DNA from: Halomicronema hongdechloris C2206 | GTDB taxonomy: Bacteria; Cyanobacteriota; Cyanobacteriia; Phormidesmidales; Phormidesmidaceae | Assembly (NCBI RefSeq): GCF_002075285.3 | Contig: NZ_CP021983.2 | Coordinates: 2,700,001-2,732,000 of the forward strand | DNA length: 32,000 nt | Direction of reading: 5' to 3' | Shown: positions 4,692-25,767 of the stretch, one piece after another | Layout of the letters: every line of letters starts with the position of its first letter | Position numbering within the stretch: position 1 is the stretch's first letter | Notes under the pieces: model-generated | The model's database searches: none | What the model saw: the letters and a program-made list of their open reading frames with translations, nothing else | What the model was told of the DNA's origin: nothing | Made by a program: the position numbers and the translations under genes

Positions 4692-4864
4692 AGTCAGGGT
4701 GCGGCAACGACTGGAAAATGATGGCCCCATGGTCGGCCAGTAGCCACGATGGCAAACCCCATTTCCCCTAAGGTCATGCTCGCACGAAAGATTGGCGAAT
4801 TTAAGGGCAGATGCGATCGCAAATCTGATACGATAACAATTCGTGACAGCCTGAATATGTCCCT

Positions 4865-4951
4865 GGAGAGGTGGCCGAGTGGTTTAAGGCGCAGCACTGG
4901 AAATGCTGTTTAGGGGCAACTCTAACGAGGGTTCGAATCCCTCCCTCTCCG
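4865..4951 (+). tRNA. tRNA-Ser (anticodon GGA), class II with long variable arm, no encoded CCA
   Basis: Acceptor GGAGAGG/CCTCTCC; anticodon stem CAGCA/TGCTG with loop CTGGAAA; T-arm GAGGG-TTCGAAT-CCCTC; discriminator G. Confidence 0.9.
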
Positions 4952-4982
4952 TTCGCTTAGCCTCGAACATCACTCAACCAGA

Positions 4983-5622: not shown

Positions 5623-5655
5623 GAGAGCGTCATTAGAGCGTCACTAGAGCGTCAT
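5623..5655. repeat. 3 x 11-bp tandem repeat (gagagcgtcat/tagagcgtcac/tagagcgtcat)
   Basis: Read directly. It spans the stop codon of the MscS gene and the intergenic gap. Confidence 0.8.
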
Positions 5656-6765
5656 CGGCGAATCGATGTACACCGTCGGTTCCGGTACGACAAATCGCAA
5701 ATTTTGAGCGGCCAGGCGCTGGGCAATGGCAGAATTCGCCAGATCTAAGAGTCGCTTGCGTAATTCCAGAGAATTCTCGGTGGGGCTAGTGATAAAAAAG
5801 AACACCCGGGCTCGGGTGGCAGGATACTTGGGCTCATCGGTGGTGCCATATTGAACCCGGGTACTGGTCTTGTCGAAGCCCCAGAAAAAGCGGCTTTCCT
5901 GTTCGATGGTACGGGTTACCAGGGCTTGCTCGTCCACCCGTAGTTGCCTGGAAAAGTCTAGGCACAGCATGGCCATGGTCTTTTTCCCCCGGCTGACATT
6001 TTCGATGTTTTTACCGGCCATGGTGGAGTTGGGCACAATCATCATCGTGTTTTGAGCGACAATGCGAATCTTGGTGGAGCGCAATCCAATGGCTTCCACT
6101 AAGCCATAGACATCCTCTCCGTAGGGATTGAAGTTGACTCGAATGTATTCTCCAGATACATAGGGACGATCCAGATAGAGTTCTAGGGTGCCAAACAGGC
6201 GGCCTAGGGTTTGTTGAGCGGCAAAGGCAATGGCGACGCCACTGATACCAACGCTAGCGCCGAGGGCGATCAAATTCACCCGCAGGCCAATGGCAAACAC
6301 GATGATGGCCAAGATGATGATCAATACGTAGATCAAGGTTTCAAAAATCAGCACCACTTCGCTGACTTCACCAAACCAGCGATTGACCAGGCCAATGACG
6401 GAACGATGAATGATCTGGCGGGCCAGTTTGGAGGCGAACCAGATGATGCAAACAGATAGGGCGGAATAGACAAAAACGCCTAAAAAGTTGTAGAGATCCT
6501 CGTACTGAATCAGCACATTCAGGCAGATGGCAATGAAGGCGAAGGCCCCGGTCAAGGTGAGAGAATTTTGAAACGGTTGAATGTAGCTTTCATAGACCGA
6601 TTTATCATCGGTAATCTGATAGTTACCCAGTAGTTTTACCCCCCTACTGATTAGTCCCAATAACCATCGCCCCACGACGGGAGAGATGGCCACGGCCAAG
6701 GAAAATAACACTAGCCTTGTCATCAGCTCCAAGACATAGTGTAGTATTTCGCGCTCGATGGGCAT
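5644..6765 (-). CDS. Mechanosensitive ion channel (MscS family) protein
   Basis: 373 aa. N-terminal TM helices, then ...GVAIAFAAQQTLGRLFGTLELYLDRPYVSGEYIRV...GLVEAIGLRSTKIR, the MscS TM3/beta-domain signature. Confidence 0.85.
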   Translation of the reverse strand: MPIEREILHYVLELMTRLVLFSLAVAISPVVGRWLLGLISRGVKLLGNYQITDDKSVYESYIQPFQNSLTLTGAFAFIAICLNVLIQYEDLYNFLGVFVYSALSVCIIWFASKLARQIIHRSVIGLVNRWFGEVSEVVLIFETLIYVLIIILAIIVFAIGLRVNLIALGASVGISGVAIAFAAQQTLGRLFGTLELYLDRPYVSGEYIRVNFNPYGEDVYGLVEAIGLRSTKIRIVAQNTMMIVPNSTMAGKNIENVSRGKKTMAMLCLDFSRQLRVDEQALVTRTIEQESRFFWGFDKTSTRVQYGTTDEPKYPATRARVFFFITSPTENSLELRKRLLDLANSAIAQRLAAQNLRFVVPEPTVYIDSPMTL

Positions 6766-6806
6766 CGTGTCTAATCCTTCATAAAGCTGGATAAGGTGGC
6801 TATCCC

Positions 6807-7940
6807 TTAAACGTTCATCGGTTGATTGATGTCGATGATGCTTTCTTTGATATCGAAGCTGATGTCATAGACTTGCAGTTGTTGGATAATATTCTCCCGC
6901 GCCATTTCTAGGAGGCCCTTACGTAATTCCATGGACGTGGCTGTGGCCCCCAAGATGAAGAAAATCACCTGAGCCTGGACATAGGCCTGGCCCGAGGGGT
7001 CGCTGAGGGGTTCGAAAGTGACCTGGGTGAGCTGATGGTCGATGCCTAAGATATCGCGGCTGCTCTCTAGGAGCAGTTGCTCGATCAGGGCTTGTTCTTC
7101 ATTGGCCATGGAGCGCGGGAAGGTCAATGTCACCATGGAGATCACCCGTTGGGCATTGGTCAGATTCTCGATGCTCACCTGCGCCAGGTTGCTGTTGGGC
7201 ACCACCATCAAGGTATTTTTGCCGGATAGGCGAATTTTGGTGGAGCGCCAGCCGGTGGATTCTACTTTACCCAGGGTGCGGTCGGGTAGGTGAATGTGGT
7301 CGCCGACGGTGAAGGGGCGATCGATATATAGCACGATGCTCCAGAGGATCTGCTCGACGATCTTTTGGGAGCCAAATGCGATCGCAAATCCCCCCACCCC
7401 CAAACTGGCGAATAACCCCACCAGGTTATAGCGATGGGCCTGGGCGTAAAAGAAAACCACCACCAACACAATGGCGGCCTTGCTGACGAATTTACCCAGG
7501 GTCAGCAACTCGGTGTTGATCTTGGCTTCCTCTTCCAGGGTCGCCCCCAGCACATAAGTATCAAACAGTTCAGAAAACAGCTTGAACCCCAGTAATGTGA
7601 CACTGACGGCCAGCAGAAAACTCAGCAACCCCTCCAGCCCCACCAGCCAAGGGGGCATGGGATTAGCCAGCACCAGCAGATCCACGCCGGTGGCGGCAAC
7701 GGCCGCCAGCAGCCAGCCCCGATAGGGAGACACCACCGTCTGCAAGACCTCCAGAGGCTGGTCTAGCTGCAGTTGCTGGGCCCAGGGCTGAGCCAAATTG
7801 AGCCACCGCCGCCGCGAGATAGCAACCCCCCAGAGCACCCCCAACAGCACCGTCAGCCCCAGCAGCACCACGACGATGCCAATCACCACATCGGGCAAAT
7901 CGAGGCTGAGGCCAATGGCTCGTAAGAAACGCTTGATCAT
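6807..7940 (-). CDS. Mechanosensitive ion channel (MscS family) protein, tandem paralog
   Basis: 377 aa. GGFAIAFGSQKIVEQILWSIVLYIDRPFTVGDHIHL...GKVESTGWRSTKIR has the same architecture as the neighbouring gene. Confidence 0.85.
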   Translation of the reverse strand: MIKRFLRAIGLSLDLPDVVIGIVVVLLGLTVLLGVLWGVAISRRRWLNLAQPWAQQLQLDQPLEVLQTVVSPYRGWLLAAVAATGVDLLVLANPMPPWLVGLEGLLSFLLAVSVTLLGFKLFSELFDTYVLGATLEEEAKINTELLTLGKFVSKAAIVLVVVFFYAQAHRYNLVGLFASLGVGGFAIAFGSQKIVEQILWSIVLYIDRPFTVGDHIHLPDRTLGKVESTGWRSTKIRLSGKNTLMVVPNSNLAQVSIENLTNAQRVISMVTLTFPRSMANEEQALIEQLLLESSRDILGIDHQLTQVTFEPLSDPSGQAYVQAQVIFFILGATATSMELRKGLLEMARENIIQQLQVYDISFDIKESIIDINQPMNV

Positions 7941-11007: not shown

Positions 11008-11922
11008 CTATGCCCCTTTGCCGCCGGTGGCTTCCCCCAGGGCTAATCCCAGATCCCGGAAGTAGCGAATGGCTAGGACCAGCAAGATCACTGCGGAGAT
11101 GACAACCTGTAGCAGGTAAATCTGATAGGTGTAGCCAAGGGAGGGAGGGAGGTCTGCCGAGGACAGTTGCCCGAGTAGCCAGGTGTAGGGATCCCAGAGC
11201 AGTGGTCCCAGGATACAAGACTGTCGAGAAATGCAGAGATCGGTAGCACCAACCCCAAGACGACTGATGCTGGCCAGCGAGGCGTCTAACTGCCCCAGGG
11301 TGGTTAAGACTAAACCGCCCAAAACTAGCAACAGCAATCCCCCTCCCAGTTGAAAAAATCGCGCTAGGGAGAGTTGGCGACCAACCAGGGCGATGCCAGT
11401 GGCGATGGCCAGGGCTAAGGCACCGGCCAGGAGGATAGCGATCGCCATCGCTGCCAGGGGGATATCTTTGGGCAACTCCAGAGTGATGGCGATGCCCCCT
11501 TGCAGCATCAGGATACAGGTGCCACTGAATAGGCTCCAGCCGGTGGTTTCACTCTGTTGTTTGGGTGCGGCGATGCGCTCGTTCCAGTCGGCGTTGAGCC
11601 AGCGGGCTTGGCGGGCTAACCAGAGCAGAATCCAGCTGAGTAGGACCAATGCGATCGCACCGAAGAGCACCTCTAGGGAGGCACCGATAATCTCCCCTAG
11701 CTCAGGAAGTACCGGGGTGATCTGTTGTAATTCCTGTTGAAGCACCACTGCCAGTAAGCCACTACCCACACCACCAACGATCACGCCACCGTAAAGCCAG
11801 CGACCCAGGCTGGGTTGCTTGGCCTGCTCTAGGCAGGCCGACAAAATTCCCACAGTCATGGCCGCCGCCAGGCTGTGGCTTAAAAACAGCACTATTAATG
11901 GTCCCATCACACTACTAGCCAT
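11008..11922 (-). CDS. FTR1/EfeU-like polytopic membrane protein lacking both REXXE motifs
   Basis: 304 aa, about 7 TM helices. From memory, the layout and the blocks LLSWILLWL, ARFFQ and SCILGPLLW resemble cyanobacterial FTR1. No RE..E motif occurs anywhere. The start overlaps the upstream stop (TAATG). Confidence 0.55.
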   Translation of the reverse strand: MASSVMGPLIVLFLSHSLAAAMTVGILSACLEQAKQPSLGRWLYGGVIVGGVGSGLLAVVLQQELQQITPVLPELGEIIGASLEVLFGAIALVLLSWILLWLARQARWLNADWNERIAAPKQQSETTGWSLFSGTCILMLQGGIAITLELPKDIPLAAMAIAILLAGALALAIATGIALVGRQLSLARFFQLGGGLLLLVLGGLVLTTLGQLDASLASISRLGVGATDLCISRQSCILGPLLWDPYTWLLGQLSSADLPPSLGYTYQIYLLQVVISAVILLVLAIRYFRDLGLALGEATGGKGA

Positions 11923-12851
11923 TACTCCTCGGCAGCCAGGCCAATCTGCTGCAGTCGCTGATTCAAATAGGCCGCCGCTGTCCAGCGGGGAAATCGCTCC
12001 CTGCCGCCAGTACGGGCCACACAGTCAGGCTGGGGACTCAGATCCACCTGGGGCCGAGGATGGACGAAAAACGGCATCGAGAGGCGCCCCTGGCCAGATT
12101 CTGGCCCATTCACCACCCGATGAGTCGTGCTCTTCAGCCAGCCATTGGTTAGGTTCTGCAACATATCGCCCGTATCGACGATAATCTGCCCCGGTGCCGC
12201 CTGCACCGGCAACCAGCGGCCATCGCGGCTATGAATTTCCAACCCCGGTGCCGTCGCCTCACAGAGCAGTGTAATAAAATTGATGTCCTCATGGGGCGCT
12301 GCCCGTAAGCTGCCAGGGGGGGCTGCCGCGGGAACCGGGGGATAATGGGCCAGGCGCAGCACCGTCTTGCCGCCGATAACCATGTCCTGCAACCAGGTCC
12401 GCGATTGCCCTAGGTAGAGGGCACAGACCTCTAACAGTTGCGCCGCACAGGCGTCGAGTTGGCCATAGAGGCTTATCATCGCTGGCCGAAAGCCAGGCAC
12501 TTCAGCTGGCCAGGGAGCATTTGCACTCTCTAAATCGCACCGATTGACATGCCAAAATTCCTTCAGATCCGGCAGGAGGCAATCCTTGGCATGCTCCCGG
12601 CCAAAGCGGGTAAAGCCCCCCTGCCCTTTCATGTCAGGATGCTCGTATTGCAGCTTTGTCTGCAGGGGTAACTCGAAGAACCGCTGAGTCATCTCATAGG
12701 CCGAGGCAATCAGCTGGGCATCGATGCCTGGATTAGCCAAGACGAAAAATCCCACCTCTGCCAACGCCTGCCCTAAGGCATCCACAAAGTCAGCTGTCGT
12801 GGCCTCAGCCCGATAATCCTGTAAGTCAAGGCAAGGAATTGTGGAGATCAT
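11922..12851 (-). CDS. 2OG-Fe(II) oxygenase (isopenicillin N synthase-like family)
   Basis: 309 aa. LRLAHYPP, APHEDINFITLL and STTHRV give an HxD...H facial triad plus the RxS-like region. Confidence 0.85.
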   Translation of the reverse strand: MISTIPCLDLQDYRAEATTADFVDALGQALAEVGFFVLANPGIDAQLIASAYEMTQRFFELPLQTKLQYEHPDMKGQGGFTRFGREHAKDCLLPDLKEFWHVNRCDLESANAPWPAEVPGFRPAMISLYGQLDACAAQLLEVCALYLGQSRTWLQDMVIGGKTVLRLAHYPPVPAAAPPGSLRAAPHEDINFITLLCEATAPGLEIHSRDGRWLPVQAAPGQIIVDTGDMLQNLTNGWLKSTTHRVVNGPESGQGRLSMPFFVHPRPQVDLSPQPDCVARTGGRERFPRWTAAAYLNQRLQQIGLAAEE

Positions 12852-13094: not shown

Positions 13095-13640
13095 CTAGTT
13101 CAGTGACAGCCACGGCGTTGAATAGCAGCGAAGGGGCGGGGGCGCGAGCGACGGGCTGCATTTTCGGGACGCCTCATTCAACGCGAGTGTCCCAGTCGTT
13201 ATCACACCCGCAAAGTCTAATGCAGATACGCCAATATGCTGCCCTATATGGAGGTTATGGAAGAACTCACACAGACTCTCAGCTCCCACTCCACGTTTGA
13301 TGCCAAACACATAGATGGCTGCCACCACCAGTCGTTTTAGCCACTGCTCGCCAGCAGAGGTTTCCCAAAACATTGAGCCTAAATTCTGATGACGACGCTT
13401 CAATGCCTGTTGATGACGAGGGACACTGCTTTTGGAAATTCCGGTGGCGGCGGCGATTGACCGAATTGTTTGAGAGCCCTTGTCTGCCAGCCTCGCTGCG
13501 ATTTGCTGATAGTGATTATCGTATCCTCGGAATCGTCTTTGAGGATACGATACTGGCCCTAGCGCTCTATCGCAGGGTTTTCCTATGTAGGCTTTTGTCC
13601 CGCTTTATGTGGATAGCCGTCAAACTTATCTTTTAGACGC
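13095..13640 (-). pseudogene. Transposase remnant: N-terminal HTH region only, no start codon, C-terminally truncated
   Basis: The minus-strand frame reads ...SYPQRRFRGYDNHYQQIAARLADKGSQTIRSIAAATGISKSSVPRHQQALKRRHQNLGSMFWETSAGEQWLKRLVVAAIYVFGIKRGVGAESL..., then degenerates. An upstream stop at about 13630 has no ATG/GTG/TTG after it before 13403. IS family not assignable by eye. Confidence 0.6.
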
Positions 13641-14061
13641 TTGATGACATTTGGAATTCATAAAAGTTGACGCCTTAAATCCCTTGATATCAAGCGTTTC
13701 GAGCTTATGGCACTTCGTCGCGGCTACCCTTCAGTTACCCCTAATATTTGATCCTTTTAGAACATTAGTTTCTTATCTCAATAAGTTACATATTTGTTAC
13801 TACTTGCAGCATCTTGGAATTCCGAATACCATCTGAAACTGTGAGGTCTTGCACAGATTTAATCGGAAAGTTAAACGGAGTTTAAAGCATAATCAACTTT
13901 TCTTTTGCAGGCTGACTGAGCTATTGGGATAGTAGCAGTTTATCTATGCTAGCTTAGTTTCTCGAAGTTGATTTTCAAGGTTACACGCGTGTTACCGATT
14001 AGGAGGTCACTTAATCGGCAACATCCGGGTATATGATTTTTTAGTAGGATGGATAACTAAA

Positions 14062-14949
14062 ATGCAGAAGCGTGTACTTGTTTACGGTGCAACAGGTGTC
14101 CAGGGAGGACCTGTTGTCAGCCAGCTTTTGAAAGCTGGATTTACGGTCAGATTATTGGTTCGAGATCGCCACAAAGCTGAGTTTTGGCAGCAAGCAGGTG
14201 CCGAACTTGCTTTCGGTGATCTGGGCGATCATCCTAGTTTGGAGAAGGCCAATAGAGACGTAGACAGAGTCTTTTTGCAGCTGCCACTAGAGTTTACTGA
14301 AACTGTCTTTGAGTATGGCAGAAACGCGATTGAGGCTGCTCAGGAAGCTGGCGTAGAATTATTAGTTTTTAACACCAGCGTACTGGTGCCAGAAGCAAAA
14401 ACTGGCGTAAAAGCTTTAGATCTCAAGCATGATGTTGAATGTTACCTCCGAGAAAGTGGCTTGCCTTACATAATTCTGCGACCCACTTTTTATATGGAGA
14501 ACTTGGCGGCTCCTTGGTCTATTCCCAGTATCATGCAGCAGGGAACGGTTGCCTATCCGATGCCGAGCGATTTTTGCGCCTCTTGGATCAGTGTTGAGGA
14601 TATGGCTGCGTATGTCGTGCAAGCCTTGAAAAATCCAGAACTAGCTGACTCAGTGTTTAACATTGGAGGACCAGAAGTGCTCGCGGCAGAGGATATTGCC
14701 AAAAAGTTCGCCCACGCTTTAAATCGTCAGATTGATTATTATCCTATCCCGCTGAATCAATTTGAAGAACAAATCAATGCTGTGATCGGGGAACCTGTAG
14801 GAACTGAGATTACAGCCTTATATCGCTGGTTTGTGACTCAGCCGCAGTCACCAGCAGCGCTCAATCTTGATTCGGTTCTACAAAAGCTGCCAGTGCAGTT
14901 AACACCGATGAAAGACTGGATTCACAAGAAGGATTGTTTTGCCGCATAG
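14062..14949 (+). CDS. NmrA-like NAD(P)-binding (atypical SDR) protein
   Basis: 295 aa. VLVYGATGVQGGPVVSQLLKAGFTVRLLVRD is a Rossmann GxxGxxG motif, and the NmrA-like length fits. Codon usage is AT-rich. Confidence 0.8.
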   Translation: MQKRVLVYGATGVQGGPVVSQLLKAGFTVRLLVRDRHKAEFWQQAGAELAFGDLGDHPSLEKANRDVDRVFLQLPLEFTETVFEYGRNAIEAAQEAGVELLVFNTSVLVPEAKTGVKALDLKHDVECYLRESGLPYIILRPTFYMENLAAPWSIPSIMQQGTVAYPMPSDFCASWISVEDMAAYVVQALKNPELADSVFNIGGPEVLAAEDIAKKFAHALNRQIDYYPIPLNQFEEQINAVIGEPVGTEITALYRWFVTQPQSPAALNLDSVLQKLPVQLTPMKDWIHKKDCFAA

Positions 14950-15005
14950 GTGAGCAGATTCTCAAATCTTCCGAGTAAGAAATTTGTTGAAAGGACTAGA
15001 AAAAG

Positions 15006-15731
15006 ATGAGTCTTTCCGATCCACCTACTGCTTTTTACTCGACAGGAATTTCAATGAATACTCTCTATGAATATCTTGAATCGAAAGAAAACAAATTCAG
15101 GCAACACTCATTCTTCAGAAACCTAAAATCTGTTGATTCCTTAAGTCAATTAGCTTTAGTGGCAGCGCAATTGTCCTTTTGGGTAATGTCTTTTCAGGAT
15201 TTGTTAAGGCTTAATATTGAGCAAGTACAAGATAAAAAACTGAGTCGCCTCTTGCGATGTCATCAAACAGAAGATGCCGGTCATGAAGAATGGTTCTTGC
15301 ATGACTTAGCAGTAATGCAAATCGCGGAACCTAGACTTCGCACACTCTATAGTCAGACACATACGCCTACTCGCGATGCCACTTATTTTGTCCTCGCACA
15401 AGTCTTTGAAGCTCAAAGTGATCACGAGCGGATTGCGCTACTACTCACAATCGAGTCAGCAGCACAGGTTTTTTTTAGTCAAGTTGCTGACTTTTCAGAA
15501 CGGCTTAAAGTCTCTAAAGACTTGATGTATTTCTCAAATCATCACTTAAACGCCGAGGAAAGCCACGATTCTCTAGATCATGATATGGAGAACTGTTTAA
15601 ACCGAATGTGGCTGACGGAAGACAAAAAGAGGATCGTTTATAGCCTGATTGATCGGGTTTATCATGCTTTCTCTATTTTGTTCGATCACTTCAATGCCAC
15701 TTTAGTGGAAAACCTTTCTGTTTCTGTTTAA
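15006..15731 (+). CDS. Heme-oxygenase-like diiron (HDO / iron-containing redox enzyme) family candidate
   Basis: 241 aa, all-helical composition. Candidate ligands are E89/D90...H93 (or H99), E150 and H180-x3-E184-x2-H187 (HHLNAEESH). An alternative start is M17 (15054). Confidence 0.6.
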   Translation: MSLSDPPTAFYSTGISMNTLYEYLESKENKFRQHSFFRNLKSVDSLSQLALVAAQLSFWVMSFQDLLRLNIEQVQDKKLSRLLRCHQTEDAGHEEWFLHDLAVMQIAEPRLRTLYSQTHTPTRDATYFVLAQVFEAQSDHERIALLLTIESAAQVFFSQVADFSERLKVSKDLMYFSNHHLNAEESHDSLDHDMENCLNRMWLTEDKKRIVYSLIDRVYHAFSILFDHFNATLVENLSVSV

Positions 15732-15821
15732 TGGATCTCTCCATTCAGAAACTTATTTGCTGTTGAATTTGAGCTTTGACGATAACGTGGACGGTATTTC
15801 AGTGAAACTTTGAGGGAAATA

Positions 15822-17075
15822 ATGGGTAATCAGTGCTCGGTAACACTATTTCTAAGCGTAGCCTCAACCCTGATGTGTTTTTCTGGTGCTGCACAGGCGG
15901 CTAGCCTGACTACCATTGCCAGTAATTTGAATAATCCGAGAGGCATTACATTTGGACCTAATGGTGGTTTGTATATTGCTGAAGCGGGTGTTGGCGGGAA
16001 TGGTATTGTTGTCCCTGCACCAGAGTTAAATTCAATTCAAACCTTTGGATTGTCTGGATCAATTACTCGTGTTCGGGATGGGGTTCAAGAACGTGTTTTA
16101 ACAGATTTACCATCGCTAGCATTAATCCCAGAAGGCGCGACCCCTCCAGAACAGGCAGGAGCTTTGCTACCTGCAACAGGAGCTCATGATATCGAGTTCG
16201 ATCAAAATGGTAATCCCTATGTGCTGTTTGGCTATGCCACAACGACGGATCAGCAAGACGCTCTTTCGGCAGTGGGTGGTGATGATCTAGGCTCATTAAC
16301 TGCCTTCAATATTAATGAGGATGACTCTTGGCAGCGCGGCGAATTTTCAATTGATTTAGTGGAGTTTGAGGAGTTAGATAATCCCGATGATGGGGCGTTT
16401 CTCAACAATCCATTTGATTTAGAGATTATAGGAGAAACGTTCTATATTGCTGATCCCGGAGGTAATAATTTTTACTCTGCGGATCTTGACGGTAATGTCG
16501 CGCTCAACGCTGTGTTTCCACCTGAAATGATTGAAGGAACTGATTTTGAGCGCGTGCCGACTTCCGTTGCTGTAGGACCAGATGGCGCTTTCTATATTGG
16601 TGAACTGACTGGCAACTTCTCACCACCGGGTAGTGCCCGAGTGCTGAGATTGCTCCCAGGCGGCGAACCTGAAGTGTTCGCGGAGGGATTTACACAAATC
16701 ATCGGCCTCGACTTCGACAGCAAAGAGAACCTCTATGTCCTAGAGTTTTCGGTCAATCCTGATGCACCGATTCCAACCGACGGTTCCGACCAAGAGTTTA
16801 CAGGTGCCCTATTCAAGGTGGCTGCGGATGGCAATCGCAGCACCGTTATTGGCCCCAACGAAGGGCTTGTAGGACCCGGCGGTATTACGGTTGGCCCTGA
16901 TGATGCGGTCTATATTTCGAATTTTGGAACTACGGTAGGCACCGGACAGGTGGTTCGAGTTGATGCTGCAGCATCTGTACCAGAGCCCTCTTCGGCTTTG
17001 GCAGTATTGAGTGTAGGAATGACTGGAGGAATCTTGCTGAAGCGACGGAAGTGGACGCCCTTAGAAACGGCCTAG
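15822..17075 (+). CDS. ScyD/ScyE-family-like beta-propeller protein with signal peptide and C-terminal PEP-CTERM sorting signal
   Basis: ATG 15822 sits 5 nt after GAGGGA. Signal peptide MGNQCSVTLFLSVASTLMCFSGAAQA; LNNPRGITFGPNGGLYIAEAGVGGNG...SGSITRV...LPSLA; C-terminal VPEPSSALAVLSVGMTGGILLKRRK. Confidence 0.7.
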   Translation: MGNQCSVTLFLSVASTLMCFSGAAQAASLTTIASNLNNPRGITFGPNGGLYIAEAGVGGNGIVVPAPELNSIQTFGLSGSITRVRDGVQERVLTDLPSLALIPEGATPPEQAGALLPATGAHDIEFDQNGNPYVLFGYATTTDQQDALSAVGGDDLGSLTAFNINEDDSWQRGEFSIDLVEFEELDNPDDGAFLNNPFDLEIIGETFYIADPGGNNFYSADLDGNVALNAVFPPEMIEGTDFERVPTSVAVGPDGAFYIGELTGNFSPPGSARVLRLLPGGEPEVFAEGFTQIIGLDFDSKENLYVLEFSVNPDAPIPTDGSDQEFTGALFKVAADGNRSTVIGPNEGLVGPGGITVGPDDAVYISNFGTTVGTGQVVRVDAAASVPEPSSALAVLSVGMTGGILLKRRKWTPLETA

Positions 17076-17325
17076 CCTTCTATAAAGGAGCGTACTGGAC
17101 ATTGCTGCTGAAGTTTGGCAGCTTTTTGTCAAAGCTGAACTTCTATATGTATGGGCTAATATTTGTTCAGTACGCTTCTACTTGCATTTTAGTTGCCGTA
17201 CTCGCAATGTCTTTAACTACTTCTAATATGGAGCGCTCTCGATTGCCCAGATATTTTTGATGTCAAAATTTGTCAGTTCACCTGTAGCTTGTAATTGCTG
17301 AAAATAGCGAACCAGATATCTGAGC

Positions 17326-17673
17326 TTATGACATAAATACAGGTTGCTGCTCATGTCTAGCTAGATAGACTTCTCCCCAATCTCGCATTGTCAGCAATAT
17401 CGGTACTAAGCTTCTGCCATATTCGGTAAGGGCATATTCCACTTTGATAGGCTCTGAATAAGCCATTCGTATAATCAGCTGATCCCGTTCTAGTTCTCTA
17501 AGTTGAAGCGTTAGAATACGGCGGCTAATACCCGGAATTTGTCTTTGGAGTTCACCAAATCGCTGTGTTCTGTCAAGTAGGCAATACAAAATATTTGGTT
17601 TCCATTTCCCAGAGATCAAGTCAACGGTCACTTTCACAGGACACGGTTTTTGTTTAGTTCGCTCTGCTTCCAC
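17326..17673 (-). CDS. HxlR-family winged-helix transcriptional regulator
   Basis: 115 aa. CPVKVTVDLISGKWKPNILYCLLDRTQRFGELQRQIPGISRRILTLQLRELERDQLI. GTG start sits 9 nt after AGGAG. It is divergent from trpE(G). Confidence 0.85.
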   Translation of the reverse strand: MEAERTKQKPCPVKVTVDLISGKWKPNILYCLLDRTQRFGELQRQIPGISRRILTLQLRELERDQLIIRMAYSEPIKVEYALTEYGRSLVPILLTMRDWGEVYLARHEQQPVFMS

Positions 17674-17903
17674 GGTTACTAGCTCCTAGCTAATTTTGAC
17701 ATCGGATCCAGCGATGCAGAAATCACTCCCTACTACAGATTAACTGTCTAAGTCATTAAAGTCTCAAATTTAGAGATTTTACTGAAAAGACCTGGTTGAA
17801 TGTCCTGTACTGGTTGTTTTTGTTATTTCAGGACTGCGCACAAGCTCATAAGCACGCCGATTTTGCTTGTCAAAAGGCCCCATCATTGACGAAGGAGATC
17901 TAT

Positions 17904-20105
17904 ATGCTTCAAGAATCTTACAGCTATCAAGTTAGGGGAAATGCTCAAGTGCGGCGCTGCACTCAAGAACTGCTTCTGGCAACTGCCCTCGACGGCCTAC
18001 TATCGCAGCTCGATCAGTATCGGGGCGGCCTCCTAAAGAGTAGCTATGAATTCCCAGGACGTTACAAACGGTGGGCGATTGGGTTTGTCAATCCTCCCTT
18101 AGAAATTTCCTCGCGGGGCAACACATTCGCCATTATAGCGCTCAATGAGCGCGGGCAAGTTCTAGTGTCTTATCTGGCGCTACACCTCTGTCGGAAACCC
18201 GAATTACGCTATCTCACTCGCAGTCAGCGTTGGATTAAGGGCACCATCCAGTTCGAGGAGCGGCCATTTCAAGAAGAGGAGCGTAGCCGTCAGCCTTCTA
18301 TATTCACACTCATTCGCTATGTGTTGGATGCCTTTCACAGTGAAGAAGATTGCTATCTGGGGCTCTATGGTGCGGTGGGTTACGACATCATTTTTCAATT
18401 TGAATCGCTCACTCAGCAGTGCGATCGCAAAGAGAATCAGCGGGATTTAATCCTTTATCTGCCGGATGATTTCTGGCTCGTTGATTACTACGCTCAACGA
18501 GCCTTCAAGGTACAGTACGAATTTGCAACTGAGTTTGGCAGCACCCACGGATTACCTCGGGATGGCGAAGTTATTGACTTTCGGGGACAGCAATTAATGC
18601 CTACCCGTCAGTCTGATCATGAACCTGGGGAGTATGCTGATCTCGTAAGACATGCCCTCGACTACTTTCGGCGCGGGGATTTGTTTGAAGTTGTGCCTAG
18701 TCAGAGCTTTTTTAGGCACTGTCAAACGGCTCCTAGTCAGCTATTTCAGACGCTGCACCAGATTAACCCTAGTCCCTACAGCTTTGTCTTCAATCTGGGT
18801 GGTGAGTATCTTGTCGGTTCGTCGCCAGAAATGTTCGTGCGAGTTGAGGGGCGACGGGTCGAGACTTGTCCCATTAGCGGCACCATTCGGCGGGGGCAAA
18901 ACGCGATCGAAGATGCTTACCAAGTTCTGAAACTGCTGAATTCTCATAAAGATGAAGCAGAACTGACGATGTGTACAGACGTTGATCGCAATGACAAATC
19001 ACGGGTTTGTGAGCCTGGTTCAGTACAGGTGATTGGCCGGAGACAGATTGAACTGTATAGCCATCTCATCCATACTGTCGATCATGTGGAGGGAACCCTC
19101 CGGCCCGAATTTGACGCGATCGATGCGTTTTTGACGCACACCTGGGCAGTGACAGTGACAGGCGCACCAAAACGGGCTGCCATCCAGTTTATCGAGCAGC
19201 ATGAGCGCAGCGCCCGCCGATGGTACGGAGGGGCTGTCGGGGGCTTCACTTTTAACGGCCATATCAATACCGGGCTGATTCTACGAACCATCTGCCTAAA
19301 AGACACGATCGCGGAGGTACGGGTGGGGGCTACCTTGCTCTATGATTCAATTCCCGAAACGGAGGAAGAGGAAACACTGACAAAAGCAGCAGCCATGATG
19401 CAAACGCTTCAGTTAGCGCAATCGGAAGAGTCGCGATCGCCTTTTCCCCAGACTCCGCCAACGGCTGCATCATTCGAGACTGGACAACGGGTGTTGTTAA
19501 TCGATTACGAGGATTCTTTTGTACACACCCTGGCCAACTATATTTGTCAGACGGGAGCACACGTGGTGACACTGCGTCATGGGTTCCCCGATTCGGTTTG
19601 GGAAATGGAACAGCCTGACTTGGTTGTGCTTTCGCCAGGACCAGGCACTCCTCGCGATTTTCACATTAGCCGAACGATTCGCACCTGCCTAAAGCGAGAG
19701 ATTCCGCTTTTTGGAGTTTGTTTAGGTCTACAAGGAATTGTAGAGACCTTTGGCGGAGAGCTGAGTTCGCTACCTTATCCACAACATGGTAAACCCTCCC
19801 GAATTTCAGTCGTAGCTGCTGACTCTCGCCTCTTTCAGAAATTGCCGCAAACCTTCGTGGCTGGGCGATATCACTCGTTGTGTGCCATGCCCGAACAAGT
19901 GCCGCCGGAGCTGAACATCACAGCCATCTCTGAGGACGGAGTGGTGATGGCCGTAGAGCATAAAACCCTGCCAATTGCTGCCGTACAGTTTCATCCCGAA
20001 TCCATCATGACGCTGGCAGAAAGTGTTGGCTTATCGATTATTTATAACGTGATGCGGACCTACGCAAAATCAGCCACGACTTCCAACCTAGTTCCGCTTT
20101 GCTAA
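17904..20105 (+). CDS. trpE: Anthranilate synthase, fused component I-component II, i.e. TrpE(G) of the rhizobial type
   Basis: ATG 17904 sits 6 nt after GAAGGAG, giving 733 aa. The N-terminal part has [67 protein letters not shown] and TVTGAPK. The C-terminal GATase part has [28 protein letters not shown] and VQFHPES. Confidence 0.9.
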
Positions 20106-20190
20106 AGGCCCCTTACATAGACGACGCAGGTTCCTTGTCATCCTTGCCATCTTTGACCGCCATGCTGTGCAACTATCGAAACTTGAGGCG

Positions 20191-21078
20191 ATGAATATTC
20201 CTTCTTCAACCTCCAATACCCTACTGCCTATTTCCTCGATCAGTCCCTCGACGGCGCAGCCCCCCGGCACAATCCTCGAAACCATCGTGCGGCACAAGCG
20301 ACAGGAAGTGATGCATCTACAGCGACAGCAATCGCTTGCAGCCATTCAGCGATGGGCAGCAGCGACTCCTCCCAGCCACGACTTTTGTGCTGCGTTGCGT
20401 CAGCATCCTAAACCGAGTCTCATTGCAGAAGTCAAAAAAGCGTCGCCGAGCCGAGGCGTGATACGAACCGACTTCAATCCGGTGGCAATCGCGGCGGCCT
20501 ATGAGCAAGGTGGTGCTGCCTGCCTGTCGGTGCTGACAGACGCTGCCTTCTTTCAGGGTAGCTTCAGGAATCTGTGGCGAGTGCGACAGCACATTGCACT
20601 ACCGCTGCTATGTAAGGAGTTCATCATTGATCCTTACCAGATTTATCTAGCGCGAGTTGCGAGAGCAGATGCAGTGCTGCTGATTGCGGCACTGCTCGAT
20701 GATGATCGTCTGCAGGAGTTTGTGTCATTGGCGAGCAATCTAGGGATGCAAGCTCTGATCGAGGTTCACACTTTGGAGGAGCTTGATCGTGTACTCTCCT
20801 TGCAGCAACTGACCCTAATCGGCATCAATAATCGCGATCTAGCCCGCTTCACCGTAGATGTTGGCATGACTGAACGGCTGTTGGCTGCCCGAGCAAACCA
20901 GATTAAAGCTGCAGATATTCTGGTCGTAAGTGAATCAGGACTACAAACCTCCGAAGATTTGCGGCGAGTTGCCGCTGCGGGAGCAGAAGCGGTCCTGATT
21001 GGTGAGTCCCTAGTCAAACAACCCGACATTAAAGCGGCTGTCCGAACCCTGCTGCACGGAGCCCATCAGGTTGCCTAA
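20191..21078 (+). CDS. trpC: Indole-3-glycerol phosphate synthase (monofunctional, no TrpF domain)
   Basis: [58 protein letters not shown] and ESG. The longest ORF starts at GTG 20167; ATG 20191 is preferred. Confidence 0.9.
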
Positions 21079-21145
21079 TCGTACGCCTGTTCACATCCGA
21101 CCAGATCGCTGCTGACTGTTGAATTGTTTATGGAGAGCCGATTTG

Positions 21146-21967
21146 ATGAACACGATCACCAATCGATTTGCCCAATTGCGAGCGCAGCGACAGTGTGCGC
21201 TGATTCCCTTCATTACAGCAGGAGATCCCAATTTAGCCACGACCCAAGCGGCTATCCAACGATTAGATCGCAGCGGTGCTGACCTGATCGAGCTGGGCGT
21301 TCCCTATACCGATCCGTTAGCAGACGGCTCCGTCATCCAAGCAGCTGCTACTCGCGCCTTACGGCGAGGGGTATATCTGGATGCAGTGCTGGATGTGGTG
21401 CGCGCTGTCAGTTCCGATATTCAGGCTCCCATTATTCTCTTTACCTACTACAACCTTATCCTTAATCGTGGTGTGCAACCTTTCCTGCAAGCGATCGCGA
21501 CTGCTGGCGCCAAGGGACTCGTAGTACCCGACCTGCCCATAGAAGAAGCTGAAGGATTAATAGAAGCGGCTAAGGTGTTGGACGTGGACGTTACCGTGAT
21601 TCTGTTAGTGGCTCCAACCAGTTCGCACATCCGCCTTCGCACGATCGCTCAAAAATCTCAGGGATTTATTTACCTGGTCAGCGTTACCGGGGTCACTGGA
21701 GTACGCAGTCAGCTACAGACAGGACTCCAATCGCTACTAGCAGAAATGCACACCTTCACCGACAAACCCATTGGCGTCGGCTTTGGCATTTCTCAACCCG
21801 ATCAAGCTCGACAACTACAGGCATGGGGGGCGGATGCGGTAATTGTTGGCAGCGCTTTTGTACAGCGTCTTGCAGACAGCTCTCCTAAAACCGGACTGCA
21901 GGCAATCGAGCAGCTCTGTCAAGATCTCAAACAAGCCATTTCTGCCACTGCAGTCTCCATGTCCTAG
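21146..21967 (+). CDS. trpA: Tryptophan synthase alpha chain
   Basis: ATG 21146 sits 8 nt after [56 protein letters not shown] and GFGIS. Confidence 0.9.
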
Positions 21968-22049
21968 CTTTCCCCTATTTAAACGATTCACCAGGTGCTC
22001 CCTAAACCCCTTAGCTCTTGACTCTAGGATGTGCTGAGTTTTTAGGCCA

Positions 22050-22089
22050 TTCAAAATTCTTCGAAATTCGAATTCAAAACTCAAAACTG
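22050..22089. repeat. TTTTGAR-type heptamer array in the trpA-trpB spacer
   Basis: The reverse complement reads cagttttgagttttgaattcgaatttcgaagaattttgaa. It shares ttttgaRttttgaa...ttcgaag with 30455-30485 and 3145-3163. Confidence 0.75.
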
Positions 22090-22129
22090 TTACCCTCCTT
22101 CTTCCGCCATCACCAGAGAGGTATTTCCT

Positions 22130-23386
22130 ATGGTCAGCACCCCCAACGGAACAATAACCGCACCGTCCCTTGCCCGACCTAACGTTGCAGGGCGATTTGG
22201 TGAATTCGGCGGGCAGTATGTGCCTGAGACTCTGATGCCAGCCCTTAGCGAGTTAGCGGCAGCCTTTCACGAAGCTTATCCCCATCCAGACTTTCAGCGG
22301 ACGCTACAGCAGCTATTGAAAGACTACGTTGGACGACCGAATCCCCTCTATTTTGCCGAGCGTCTTACAGCCCACTATGCACGACCTAACGGAACAGGAC
22401 CCCAGATTTATCTCAAACGCGAAGACTTAAACCATACGGGCGCTCACAAAATCAATAACGCGCTGGGGCAGGTGCTACTGGCTCAGCGCATGGGGAAACG
22501 ACGCATCATTGCCGAAACTGGAGCCGGGCAGCATGGGGTGGCAACAGCGACGGTATGCGCTCGCTTTGGCCTACAATGTGTGATTTATATGGGCGTTCAC
22601 GATATGCAACGGCAGGCGCTCAACGTCTTTCGGATGCGGCTGATGGGAGCTGAAGTGGTGCCAGTCGAGGCAGGTACTGGCACCCTCAAAGAGGCTACCT
22701 CAGAAGCCATTCGTGACTGGGTAACGAATATTGAGACAACCCATTACATTCTGGGTTCGGTAGCTGGTCCCCATCCTTATCCCATGATTGTGCGGGATTT
22801 TCATGCCGTGATTGGTCAGGAAACTCGGCGTCAGTGCCAGGAAAAGTGGGGAGGCTTGCCCAATATCTTGCTGGCCTGTGTTGGCGGCGGGTCCAACGCT
22901 ATGGGCCTGTTTCACGCGTTTGTGGAAGAGCCCTCGGTACGGCTAATGGGGATAGAAGCGGCGGGACAAGGCGTTTTGTCCGGCAAGCATGCAGCGACTC
23001 TGACACAAGGCCGAATTGGGGTGCTGCATGGTGCGATGAGCTACCTGTTGCAGGATGAGCATGGTCAGGTGCTAGAGGCTCATTCCATCAGTGCCGGGCT
23101 GGACTATCCTGGCGTGGGTCCAGAGCACAGCTATTTCAAGCAGAGTGGACGAGGCGAATACGACAGCGTCACAGATGAGGAAGCTCTCGCTGGACTGCAG
23201 CGGTTGTCTCGTCTTGAGGGCATCATTCCGGCACTAGAAACAGCTCACGCGATCGCCTATCTTGAAACGCTCTGTCCGCAGCTCAGCGGCAATCCTCGCA
23301 TTGTGATCAACTGCTCTGGACGTGGCGATAAAGATGTCCAAACCGTGGCGAATGCGCTGCAAGCCACTGAGTTTTCAAGTCTCTAA
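22130..23386 (+). CDS. trpB: Tryptophan synthase beta chain
   Basis: 418 aa. [31 protein letters not shown] (PLP lysine), ETGAGQHG and [18 protein letters not shown] lies 8 nt upstream. Confidence 0.95.
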
Positions 23387-23438
23387 ATGTTTGATCGCGG
23401 TAGCACGCGATCGCTTTTCCCTGCCCCCTTACTTACCG

Positions 23439-24530
23439 ATGACCATGATGACAACCTCTCTCCAATCTATGCCTCAACCTGCCATCAGTCTCCAGACCTG
23501 GCAGGAGATCCTGCACCGCTTGTTAGAGCATCGCTCTTTATCGGTAGAGCAGGCCGCTAGTTTAATGCAAGGCTGGCTGCAGGAAACTATCTCGCCTGCT
23601 CTTTCTGGCGCAATTTTGACTGCAATTCAAGCGAAGGGCGTGTCTGCGAGCGAACTGGTGGGAATGGTGCAGGTGCTGCAAGAGCGAGCCGTGCAGAGTC
23701 ACCCTCGCGTAGATACCCATCCCGTTGTTGACACCTGTGGTACGGGCGGTGATGGCGCTTCGACCTTCAACATTTCAACGGCGGTGGCTTTTGTGGTAGC
23801 CGCGGCTGGCGTCAAAGTTGCCAAGCACGGTAACCGCTCCGTCAGCAGCAAGGCGGGTTCAGCCGACGTATTGGAGGCTCTGCGCATTGATTTAGGCGCT
23901 AGCCATCAAAGAGTGGAAGCCGCTTTGGATGAAGTTGGCATCACCTTTTTGTTTGCACCTGGTTGGCATCCTGCCTTCAAAGCGGTGGCTCCTATCCGTA
24001 AAACGCTAGGCATTCGGACCATTTTCAACGTACTCGGACCGCTGCTGAATCCTCTAGGGCCCACAGGACAGGTAATTGGAGTGTCCGATCCGGCCCTGGT
24101 TGAGCCTGTAGCTGAAGCGATTGCCCGCTCTAGTGACCGTCATGGGGTGGTGGTATACGGACGAGAGCACTTGGATGAGGCTGGCTTAGCAGACCTGTCT
24201 GATGTGGCGATCGTGAATGATAACCAGATTGATGTAACCACTGTCAATCCTGATCATCTGGGGTTAGCAGCCGCTCCTACTGCAGCCCTTCGAGGCGGCG
24301 ACATCCGCACTAATGCAGACATTCTCAAAGCTGTTTTACAGGGTCGAGGCACTCAGGCACAGCAAGATGTGGTGGCCCTCAATGCAGCGATGGCACTGTA
24401 CGTCGGAGAGGCGATCGCCGGGGTCACTGTTCATGAGGCGTTTGAGAAAGGAATTCAGGTCGCTTACTCAATTCTGAGGAGTGGTGCAGCTTGGCAAAAA
24501 CTAGAACAGCTTGCTCAGTTTTTGGCATAA
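23439..24530 (+). CDS. trpD: Anthranilate phosphoribosyltransferase
   Basis: [38 protein letters not shown] and [12 protein letters not shown] 23439 gives 363 aa. The longest ORF (from 23322) would overlap trpB by 65 nt. Confidence 0.9.
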
Positions 24531-24539
24531 ACGTACAGA

Positions 24540-24905
24540 GGACATTGTCAACTTGAATGCTGTGGTGCCCTTTGTCGGTGTCTGTCAGGGGTAAGCCGAT
24601 GCCGGTCAGTTACAAATATCACCGATTTCCCATTGCGATCATTAGTCACTGCGTCTGGCTTTACTACACCTTTTCCCCTCAGCTACCGCGATATCGAAAA
24701 GATGACGCTTTATCGCGGCATTGAGGTGACCTACGAGTCGATCCGCAAGTGGTGCAAAAAGTTTGCTCAAGTCTATGCGAACCAGGTCCGTCGCCGTCGC
24801 CCCAAATCGAGAGATAAATGGCATCTCGATGAAGTCGTGATCACGATTAAGGGCCAGCAGTATTACTTGTGGCGAGCTGTAGACGCGGACAGTCAGGTCA
24901 TCGAC
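24540..24905 (+). mobile_element. IS6-family insertion sequence remnant: left inverted repeat plus frameshifted, 3'-truncated transposase
   Basis: Candidate IRL GGACATTGTCAAC at 24540. From ATG 24599: MPVSYKYHRFPIAIISHCVWLYYTF, then (+1 frame at the T4C4 run 24671-24678) PLSYRDIEKMTLYRGIEVTYESIRKWCKKFAQVYANQVRRRRPKSRDKWHLDEVVITIKGQQYYLWRAVDADSQVID. This matches the N-terminal half of IS26-like Tnp and is lost after about 24905. Confidence 0.75.
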
Positions 24906-24991
24906 AAAGATACTTACTCCACCACCCCCAGCACCGTAATCTTGATCCGCGCTAGCTGACTCCTCAACCTGGCCCATTCCCTGTAAGTCAG

Positions 24992-25046
24992 CGATATCAC
25001 CATGCCTAGGGACAACTTCCAGTCGGTCCAGGGCATGGTGATATCG
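24992..25046. repeat. Perfect 15-bp inverted repeat (cgatatcaccatgcc / ggcatggtgatatcg) with a 25-nt spacer
   Basis: 24992-25006 is the exact reverse complement of 25032-25046. Confidence 0.85.
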
Positions 25047-25246
25047 GTGGAGGGCAGTTTCAACAGCCATAGCAGACCTCAGGCACAGGCTGGTCTCTGC
25101 CACGAGCCAGGTGGTGACAACGCTGGTGAGAAGGGCTCGGCAGGGGTTAAAACACATCGTCAGGAAAGCTGGGAGGTACAAACCACTCTCCTAACTCTAC
25201 ATCTTGTTTTCGGGGTGAATTGGCTGTCTGAGCAACCTGCATGATC

Positions 25247-25362
25247 GTCATTCTCGCGGCGGCGGGAATCCAGTTGCCAGGTGTCTTCGCCCGAAAAATA
25301 TTTGCCGACTGCGTAGACCTCTACCTGGATTCCGGGTGGCGCTGCGCTTGCCCCGGAATGAC
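25247..25362. repeat. Two REP-like hairpin units in inverted orientation (25247-25273 and 25325-25362)
   Basis: gtcattctcgcggcggcgggaatccag, and the reverse complement of the second unit, gtcattccggggcaagcgcagcgccacccggaatccag. Each has a GTCATTC...GGAATCCAG frame around an internal stem. Confidence 0.6.
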
Positions 25363-25624
25363 GAAAAGCTTTTCCGTTGTGCATGAATTACCACCATCAA
25401 CCTTACAGCGTTGCCTGGTTACTTAACTCAGCCTCGCCAGAGCAAGGCTTCGTCACAGAGTCACGCTCAAATCAGGAGTCTGACCCTCTCTTAGCGTCAC
25501 CAGAGCTCAAATGTATCCCGCCATCCTAAGCCTCATCACCGATGGCAGGTTCGTTCACCGCATCTGATCCGTCGGGACGTATCACCTCGATATGATGCCA
25601 AACCGCCGTAATCTGTATTAAACA

Positions 25625-25657
25625 CATTCCCGGCCAGGGATACTCCGACCGGGAATG
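25625..25657 (-). terminator. Candidate intrinsic terminator downstream of grxD
   Basis: 9-bp stem cattcccgg/ccgggaatg with a 15-nt loop. On the minus strand it is followed by TGTTTAAT, a weak U-tract, about 110 nt after the grxD stop. Confidence 0.3.
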
Positions 25658-25767
25658 CCTAGAGAGATAGCGATGATCTGGCTCAGCTCTAAACGTATTC
25701 CAGCTAAATACTCGTCCCAGGGCTGACTAAATAACCTAGATTAGGCTACTTGCTTAGATGGAATACT

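Follow-up and report, generated by a model that had tools for sequence, protein, structure and literature searches.

Why should a cyanobacterium keep a tryptophan operon next to a reductase, a candidate diiron oxidase, and an exported propeller protein? The question is raised by a locus of Halomicronema hongdechloris C2206, in a stretch of 32,000 nucleotides (RefSeq assembly GCF_002075285.3, contig NZ_CP021983.2, positions 2,700,001 to 2,732,000 of the forward strand) that we call the window; coordinates below are counted from its first letter. At 13.6-24.6 kb, the window carries an NmrA-family reductase, a heme-oxygenase-like diiron oxidase (HDO), a beta-propeller, an HxlR-type regulator, and trpE(G)-trpC-trpA-trpB-trpD. 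We favor, at a probability of about 0.6, the reading that this region is a horizontally acquired biosynthetic cluster for a tryptophan-derived, probably extracytoplasmic, indole metabolite: a cluster that follows the logic of scytonemin biosynthesis with another committed enzyme. A first-pass annotation, made from the sequence alone, had proposed a scytonemin-like layout without scyABC, in which a precursor-supply module is coupled to oxidative tailoring, reduction, and periplasmic maturation of an uncharacterized tryptophan- or indole-derived product. This working hypothesis gains support from the co-occurrence of the module with trp genes, the presence of a second trpE, the kinship of the oxidase to AetD, and the ebo and AraC-type neighbors of related loci. 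The genes that it named are all present where it placed them, with strong matches to Pfam and NCBIfam family profiles. Its claim on orientation holds as well: the cassette genes lie on the plus strand save hxlR, and the closest genes on either flank are encoded on the minus strand. All nine cassette open reading frames (ORFs) are full length and free of frameshifts, and their family profiles are matched end to end.

Central to the cassette is the HDO gene (15006-15731, plus strand), whose 241-residue product was assigned from sequence, predicted fold, and an alignment of metal ligands. The protein is 100% identical to XM38_025630 and would be 225 residues long if translation starts at the ATG at 15054; its neighbors in the window match XM38_025640 and the C2206 anthranilate synthase, which identifies the window as chromosomal DNA of this cyanobacterium. 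In profile searches, PF14518 falls short of its gathering score (22.2 against 28.9 bits), and none of the NCBIfam models matched. The only sequence relative in the PDB is AetD (phmmer, E 1e-7, full-length alignment), at 18-20% identity. An AlphaFold2 model built on 25 homologues is all-helical (predicted local distance difference test, pLDDT, 87.7; predicted template-modeling score, pTM, 0.84) and is predicted to adopt the seven-helix heme-oxygenase-like fold. When this model was compared with the PDB by Foldseek, the top 17 matches were all AetD structures, with template-modeling scores of 0.70-0.79; their E-values were about 100 times better than those of CADD, BesC, UndA, and TenA, which come next.

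The alignment extends to the active site. The published metal ligands of AetD are D76, H79, E140, H172, E176, and H179 (PMC10654658); they correspond to D90, H93, E150, H180, E184, and H187 of the HDO, and these six residues are invariant in its ten closest homologues. Y167 of AetD, which contacts the substrate carboxylate, corresponds to Y175, invariant in the family, and the indole clamps F44 and I146 correspond to W59 and F156, so that the aromatic or hydrophobic character is kept. AetD S214, which contacts the bromine at C7, is replaced by F222, a change that fits the absence of a halogenase from the cassette. The first-pass annotation had called this gene an HDO candidate, and the assignment can now be made more specific: judged by its sequence, modeled fold, and aligned ligands, the protein appears to be a distant member of the AetD branch.

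The HDO family has few members: a search of 1.84 billion representative proteins gave 404 matches at E<=0.001 and 64 at <=1e-30; a single representative, P0003, is at least 50% identical to the HDO (59%), and the next best reaches at most 45%. One subgroup comprises P0016, P0019, P0021, and P0022 of alignment A1 (Nostocales, including Anabaena subtropica). Three of the six metal ligands are replaced in its members: D90 by Q, K, or N; H180 by N (P0016 keeps the histidine); and H187 by Y. Going by these residues, the subgroup may be non-catalytic or may bind metal differently.

What is known of the characterized relatives centers on tryptophan. AetD turns tryptophan, halogenated or not, into indole-3-carbonitrile (PMC10654658, PMC11869266), and SktA converts L-tryptophan into skatole, cyanide, and CO2 (PMC11869266). 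Other AetD homologues are described by the discoverers of AetD and SktA as having no known function and varied genomic contexts (PMC11869266). The HDO shares with AetD and SktA the seven-helix heme-oxygenase-like fold, the unusual D/H/E/H/E/H ligand order, the carboxylate-contacting tyrosine, a cyanobacterial origin, and location in a tryptophan-centered cluster. The differences are equally plain. Identity to AetD does not exceed the low value given above, whereas SktA and AetD are 39% identical; the halogen-contacting serine has become phenylalanine; and the halogenase, cytochrome P450, and tryptophanase partners are missing. In place of the partners found in the aet and skt clusters, the present cluster has the NmrA reductase, the ScyE-like propeller, HxlR, and, in its relatives, ebo genes.

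Is this gene neighborhood more than an accident of one genome? HDO, propeller, and HxlR, usually with the reductase, occur together in nine distinct genomic contexts, the window included. Orthologues of the module are 47-81% identical across these contexts and stand in differing arrangements; trp genes are present in 5 of the 9, and ebo genes also in 5. Closest in layout is Vasconcelosia (Romeria) LEGE 07310 (L001/L011), where NmrA-HDO-propeller-HxlR(-)-trpE(G)-trpC-trpA-trpB runs to the contig end in the same order as in the window, at 57-79% identity, among other chromosomal neighbors and with IS200/IS605 genes upstream. Leptolyngbya sp. SIO1E4 (L110) has HDO (73%), propeller (78%), HxlR (77%), and trpE(G) (75%), followed directly by eboF-E-D-C-B-A; this is a full eboA-F set, with EboA at 337 bits, EboC at 388, and EboE at 502, all over their cut-offs.

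The remaining contexts come from metagenomes. One (L102/L103) reads NmrA-HDO-propeller, a DUF2461 gene on the minus strand, and HxlR-eboA-eboB-eboC. In another (L106/L107), aroG-trpD-trpB-trpA-trpC-trpE(G) and NmrA-HDO-propeller-eboB-eboE are divergently oriented; HxlR, an integrase, and ParA lie close by. In a third (L108/L109), ParA/McdB and transposase genes and a MauG-like di-haem protein are followed by NmrA-HDO-propeller and by trpE(G)-trpC-trpA-trpB-aroG-trpD-eboA. The others are shorter: eboF, then HxlR(-)/NmrA-HDO, a truncated propeller, and a transposase (L104); HxlR(-)/NmrA-HDO-propeller between IS240-type genes, with an AraC-type response regulator and a Mob relaxase (L005/L006); and NmrA-HDO-propeller, complete with PEP-CTERM, then HxlR(-) and an AraC-type response regulator (L105). 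Co-occurrence of the module with trp genes in other genomes, which the first-pass annotation had made a touchstone of its hypothesis, is thus seen in LEGE 07310, SIO1E4, and two plasmid-like metagenomic contigs. A metagenome scan with an alignment of the close HDO clade returned 11 loci, mostly short, and added nothing to these contexts. In PLSDB, a protein search with the HDO found no plasmid that carries the cassette, only a 23% identical AetD-like gene in Calothrix.

The association stops at the edge of the clade. Among 79 loci with HDO homologues at <=45% identity (Nostoc, Legionella, Myxococcota), NmrA, propeller, HxlR, or trp neighbors were found in none. The linkage is therefore specific to one co-evolving set of orthologues, and, since it is confined to this clade and survives several rearrangements, it argues for a functional gene cluster rather than a chance neighborhood.

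The distant homologues (34-45% identity) deserve mention in their own right. They are widespread in Legionella, in Archangium and other Myxococcota, and in Nostoc (L012-L090). A FAD_binding_4/cytokinin-dehydrogenase-like oxidase gene follows the HDO gene in 53 of the 79 loci (for example, L035 8512-12095 and L009 8620-12080), and a FAD_binding_3 monooxygenase gene precedes it in 45, often with an O-methyltransferase. Distant HDO and FAD oxidase together look like a separate conserved cluster. A further observation concerns the third metagenomic context: the MauG-like protein, a di-haem cytochrome c peroxidase of 648 residues (PF03150, 66 bits), is encoded directly 5' of NmrA-HDO-propeller (L108 5527-7473, L109 3235-5181) and, from its family, could be an extra periplasmic oxidative partner.

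The propeller gene (15810-17075, plus strand) encodes a ScyD/ScyE-family NHL beta-propeller with a signal-like N-terminus and a C-terminal PEP-CTERM anchor, so that the product appears to be exported; the likely start is the ATG at 15822, giving 417 residues. The family profile NF033206 (ScyD/ScyE) matches over positions 1-333 of 333 with 279 bits, against a cut-off of 80. The PEP-CTERM model TIGR02595 scores 22.5 bits (cut-off 16), and Pfam PEP-CTERM 18.6, just under its 20.7. The N-terminus, read by eye for its export signal rather than by a signal-peptide predictor, is hydrophobic and ends ...FLSVASTLMCFSGAAQA/AS, with an AQA-AS site; the C-terminus reads VPEPSS...LLKRRK. The ScyD/E-like label of the first-pass annotation thus stands for family membership, and orthology to ScyE proper is not supported: with about 20 clusters at >=44% identity, the protein makes up a clade of its own, in which scores stay at or above 345 bits, against 257 for generic ScyD/ScyE-family proteins. 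The ScyF equivalog, too, is far from reached (19.5 bits against a cut-off of 350). We considered whether the propeller is ScyE itself, the orthologue of Npun_R1272 in the scyABC cluster, and rejected this on account of its own clade and the absence of scyABC from the window. A PLSDB protein search with the propeller returned generic ScyD/E-family genes and no plasmid with the cassette.

Downstream lies the trp block, all on the plus strand. The first gene (17796-20105) encodes a fused anthranilate synthase, TrpE(G), of clade 3, which holds both the chorismate-binding PF00425 and the GATase PF00117 domain in one chain and scores 1139 bits with the equivalog TIGR01815 (cut-off 739); its likely start is the ATG at 17904, after AAGGAG, giving 733 residues. 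There follow trpC (indole-3-glycerol-phosphate synthase, 20167-21078; PF00218 288 bits, NF001372 392 bits), trpA (tryptophan synthase alpha, 21119-21967; TIGR00262 299 bits), trpB (tryptophan synthase beta, 22130-23386; TIGR00263 608 bits), and trpD (anthranilate phosphoribosyltransferase, 23322-24530; TIGR01245 387 bits). TrpC, TrpA, TrpB, and TrpD exceed their equivalog cut-offs. In trpD, the match begins at residue 65 of the long ORF, and the real start is probably the ATG at 23439 (363 residues), past the trpB stop. Directly 3' of that stop, a hairpin at 23392-23413 carries two HIP1-like GCGATCG palindromes; the scan called it a terminator, but it may be no more than a cyanobacterial HIP1 repeat.

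No trpF is present in the cassette set. The first-pass annotation regarded the set as additional to the housekeeping one, and the accessible part of the gene table in the C2206 genome paper agrees as far as trpE is concerned: it places a second trpE, trpE_1 (XM38_006610), next to psaD, and also lists aroB_1. On that entry, the cassette trpE is not the genome's only trpE. TrpE(G) shares 75% identity with its SIO1E4 counterpart and about 64% with the one encoded in an indole-halogenase cluster of Nostoc; its cyanobacterial relatives at about 65% identity number in the hundreds. The Nostoc cluster, from N. punctiforme NIES-2108 (L111), repeats the succession of fused trpE(G), trpC, trpA, trpB, and trpD, with 57-78% identity to the genes here. 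It differs in its tailoring genes, in having aroG and a cyclase-like gene upstream, and in having no ScyE-like or HxlR gene. Because the same block lies inside this indole cluster, trpE(G)CABD behaves like a movable unit that supplies tryptophan for the making of indole natural products. The NIES-2108 locus itself (618-21207 of LXQE01000175.1) encodes two tryptophan halogenases, a P450, a tryptophanase-type lyase, and a flavin-dependent (FAD) monooxygenase, besides aroG, the cyclase-like gene, trpE(G)CABD, a flavin reductase, and a thiamine diphosphate (ThDP) enzyme. The set resembles that for aetokthonotoxin, and the same strain yielded SktA.

The reductase and the regulator complete the module. 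The NmrA-family NAD(P)-binding protein (14062-14949, plus strand; PF05368 159 bits) has a GATGVQG Rossmann motif, and its closest solved relatives are KstA11 (5f5l/5f5n, E 1e-24) and then triphenylmethane reductase. Its orthologues, at 64-69% identity, lie directly 5' of the HDO gene in 8 contexts; in SIO1E4 the orthologue is missing, and a nearby paralogue is only 31% identical. KstA11 and ActVA-ORF4, a member of the same group that catalyzes biaryl dimerization, resemble it as NAD(P)H-dependent enzymes that act on aromatic or quinonoid natural-product intermediates; they differ in that the kinship is distant and the substrates are polyketides, so that their activity is not transferable by homology.

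The HxlR-type regulator (17326-17673, minus strand; PF01638 103 bits) belongs to a MarR-like, redox- or electrophile-sensing family and is divergent from trpE(G). Its orthologues, at 59-77% identity, recur in 8 of the 9 contexts, and no homologue was found within the examined part of L108/L109. HxlR thus belongs to the conserved core, a place that the first-pass annotation had not given it. In the window it is divergent from trpE(G), elsewhere from NmrA, and it is likely the regulator of the pathway. A consensus scan placed a terminator-like hairpin with a T-run at 17104-17122 (plus strand), 29 nucleotides past the propeller stop; sites of this kind, terminator-like or promoter, were not enriched over shuffled sequence. 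Lying past the propeller gene, this hairpin hints at two transcription units, the first of them NmrA-HDO-propeller. The hxlR-trpE spacer yielded no inverted repeats, and we claim no operator there; it has only a short conserved stretch in common between Halomicronema and SIO1E4.

How did the cassette come to be here? Its guanine-plus-cytosine (GC) content is 0.38-0.55, against 0.58-0.59 in the flanks: 0.38 in the leader, 0.40 in the oxidase gene, and 0.51-0.55 in the trp genes. The cassette is compositionally foreign. The Vasconcelosia copy has a similarly low GC in a host of GC 0.59, and mobile-element genes surround most copies of the module. The presumed promoter region, an AT-rich non-coding leader 5' of the NmrA gene (13641-14061, plus strand), includes an imperfect inverted repeat at 13982-14031. 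On the right, directly 3' of trpD, the border is an insertion sequence (IS) relic: the frameshifted N-terminal half of an IS6-family transposase (24557-24959, plus strand), which covers positions 2-99 of 202 of NF033587 with 123 bits and also matches PF13610 (DDE_Tnp_IS240). On the left, the border is a truncated N-terminal fragment of a DUF6399-family gene (13095-13560, minus strand; GC 0.53), possibly a mobile-element relic. By tblastn it is 54-56% identical to genes annotated as 'DUF6399 domain-containing protein', which are present in several copies on plasmids of Acaryochloris and Crinalium, and it matched no recognized transposase family among the NCBIfam transposase models. Of the claim that IS relics bracket the cassette, the right half is therefore confirmed and the left half only in part. 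We also considered an IS6 composite transposon in the window and rejected it, as there is a single IS6 relic, on the right, and the left fragment is of a different family; the L006 module does stand between two IS240-type genes.

The logic of the cluster is best seen beside that of scytonemin. In that pathway, both ebo and ScyE are required, ScyE being periplasmic and needed to convert the scytonemin monomer, and in Nostoc punctiforme ebo and scy are separate loci (PMC6282210). ScyD, ScyE, and ScyF are PEP-CTERM proteins that depend on exosortase (PMC12188702). Genes for aromatic amino acids, aroG and aroB among them, are part of the scy cluster as well, and a two-component regulator lies next to it (PMC7997468). 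The present cluster shares with the N. punctiforme one a dedicated trp block, aroG in some relatives, and a Sec/PEP-CTERM-exported NHL propeller of the ScyD/E family. It shares as well an association with ebo (five related loci, not the Halomicronema copy), an AraC-type response regulator that neighbors the module in L005 and L105, comparable to the two-component regulator Npun_F1277/F1278, and the expectation that a tryptophan-derived product is finished outside the cytoplasm. As to gene order, the scytonemin trp genes reportedly run E-C-A-B-D (Soule et al. 2009), the order found here. The ebo neighbors in five contexts and the AraC-type regulators in two reinforce the analogy.

The two clusters part ways at the committed step. 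ScyA (a ThDP enzyme), ScyB (a Leu/Glu-type dehydrogenase), and ScyC are lacking here, as the first-pass annotation had noted: no gene of these types is present among the 28 larger ORFs that were scanned out of those of at least 80 residues in the window, nor were TPP_enzyme, ELFV_dehydrog, or ScyC-like ORFs found in L001, L005, L102, L106, L108, and L110. Also lacking are tyrA/tyrP or another supply of p-hydroxyphenylpyruvate. The AetD-like oxidase and NmrA reductase stand in the place of the committed enzymes, the regulator is an HxlR protein, one propeller of a separate clade replaces ScyD, ScyE, and ScyF, and the Halomicronema copy has no adjacent ebo genes.

Taken together, these features suggest a sequence of events in the Halomicronema copy, should it be active. 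The trpE(G)-trpC-trpA-trpB-trpD operon would raise the supply of tryptophan, with trpF provided by the host. The HDO would take up an aromatic L-amino acid, most likely L-tryptophan, whose amino and carboxylate groups would bind at Fe1 in the manner of AetD, and would then oxidatively cleave or rearrange the side chain. The NmrA-type NAD(P)H enzyme may reduce or otherwise process a reactive intermediate or the product. The product would reach the periplasm or cell surface, a step for which adjacent ebo genes are available in the cluster's relatives. There, the Sec-exported, PEP-CTERM-anchored propeller would perform a late step, by analogy with the oxidative dimerization assigned to ScyE. HxlR would control the gene set.

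Several points weigh against this account. HDO enzymes that share one ligand set catalyze very different reactions, so that chemistry cannot be read from the ligands. For this reason, because of the low identity to AetD, and because AetD structures show binding of tyrosine and phenylalanine too (8zvg, 8zvh), the assignment of tryptophan as the HDO substrate rests mainly on gene context; it is the trp operon and, in the aligned pocket, Y175, W59, and F156 that would point to tryptophan oxidation. The propeller is only 35-42% identical to generic ScyD/ScyE-family proteins and forms its separate clade, and we know of no ScyD/E-family protein for which activity has been demonstrated in vitro. The reductase may be dispensable, since the SIO1E4 cluster has no orthologous NmrA. 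Genes or remnants for ebo, aroG, and a response regulator were not found in the window (for ebo, the best tblastn E-value was 0.03); nothing at the Halomicronema locus therefore speaks for the export step, and this copy could be a truncated remnant. In addition, a 2026 preprint assigns ebo to thallusin biosynthesis and suggests that its effect on scytonemin is indirect, which weakens the view of ebo as an exporter.

That IS activity truncated the copy is an alternative that the first-pass annotation had already raised. Had the copy once belonged to a full cluster with aroG and eboA-F, cut by IS activity after trpD, it would now be inactive or incomplete and would yield at most extra tryptophan and an intracellular indole by-product. 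The IS6 relic does follow trpD directly, at the point where L108 (with its aroG between trpB and trpD) has eboA; SIO1E4 has ebo genes directly after trpE(G); neither ebo nor aroG left a detectable remnant in the window; and the gene at the left border is truncated too. We nevertheless regard such a remnant as unlikely, given that none of the nine ORFs shows decay, that ebo may lie elsewhere in the genome, as in N. punctiforme with its separate loci (PMC6282210), and that L005 and L105 keep the four-gene core even though ebo and trp genes do not adjoin it.

The same neighborhoods bear on two other explanations. NmrA-HDO-propeller-HxlR might form a stress or detoxification module under an electrophile- or quinone-sensing HxlR and merely travel beside an acquired trp operon, with no shared pathway. 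An HxlR-family regulator with a divergent NAD(P)H reductase is a common electrophile-response arrangement, and this divergent pairing is present in L005 and L104; the closest solved relatives of NmrA reduce quinonoid or dye substrates, and the terminator-like hairpin lies between the two blocks. Yet hitch-hiking is hard to accept because the trp linkage recurs in four different arrangements, divergent and downstream ones included. The only characterized relatives of the HDO, moreover, are tryptophan-processing biosynthetic enzymes, and an exported PEP-CTERM propeller and ebo genes are untypical of cytoplasmic detoxification modules; we consider this explanation doubtful indeed. The trp genes could, alternatively, be the primary tryptophan pathway of the organism, and the upstream genes unrelated neighbors. 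All five are intact and pass equivalog cut-offs, as a primary pathway would require, but the accessible gene table puts a separate trpE_1 beside psaD, the operon has a foreign composition, an IS relic at its border, and no trpF, the same fused-trpE(G) block lies within specialized indole clusters of other cyanobacteria (L108, L111), and the whole cassette occupies a different chromosomal site in Vasconcelosia. We reject this explanation as highly improbable.

The surroundings of the island contribute a few observations of their own. Immediately to its left, at 11008-12851, lie a 2-oxoglutarate (2OG)-Fe(II) oxygenase gene and an FTR1-type iron permease gene with the GC of the host (0.58-0.59), for which reason we treat them as resident and outside the cassette. 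Further left, at 5644-7940, are two tandem MscS-type mechanosensitive-channel paralogues of 373 and 377 residues; the segment 6001-7000, which bears most of the first, has a GC of 0.49, below its surroundings. Rfam and tRNA scans found nothing inside the cassette. The sole RNA-family match of the window is a tRNA-Ser (GGA) at 4864-4952, not an obvious integration site because it is far from the island borders. On the right, a 179-residue ORF antisense to the IS6 relic (24642-25181, minus strand) has no family match and is probably spurious, and the stretch of some 0.8 kb that separates the relic from the glutaredoxin gene (25000-25767) holds no convincing ORF and may be degraded mobile-element DNA as well.

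If the locus is read as a biosynthetic cluster for an indole metabolite, what does it add to cyanobacterial biology? We put forward, tentatively and with less than even confidence, that cyanobacteria here reveal for the first time a second route, independent of scytonemin, to an extracellular indole-based compound, possibly a pigment or sunscreen: a single AetD-like HDO would replace ScyABC and make the monomer from tryptophan, a ScyE-like PEP-CTERM propeller and ebo would finish the product outside the cytoplasm, and the whole would move on plasmids and IS-flanked islands among filamentous cyanobacteria. The parts are all of known kinds (AetD-type HDO, ScyD/E propeller, trp supply operon, ebo); the conserved combination, with an HDO in place of ScyABC, appears to be new, and full-text literature searches found no description of this cluster type.

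The cluster gives one clade of AetD homologues a defined, conserved context, and with it a prediction: tryptophan in, an indole-derived product out, and finishing in the periplasm. It would be a second, scytonemin-independent system that ties a ScyD/E-family PEP-CTERM propeller and ebo to a tryptophan-derived pathway. As such, it could help decide between two views of ebo: transport of a precursor to the periplasm (PMC6282210), or thallusin synthesis with an indirect effect on scytonemin. It could also reveal what ScyE-type propellers catalyze. For Halomicronema hongdechloris itself, a chlorophyll f model organism, an acquired cluster of this kind may bear on light or stress ecology.

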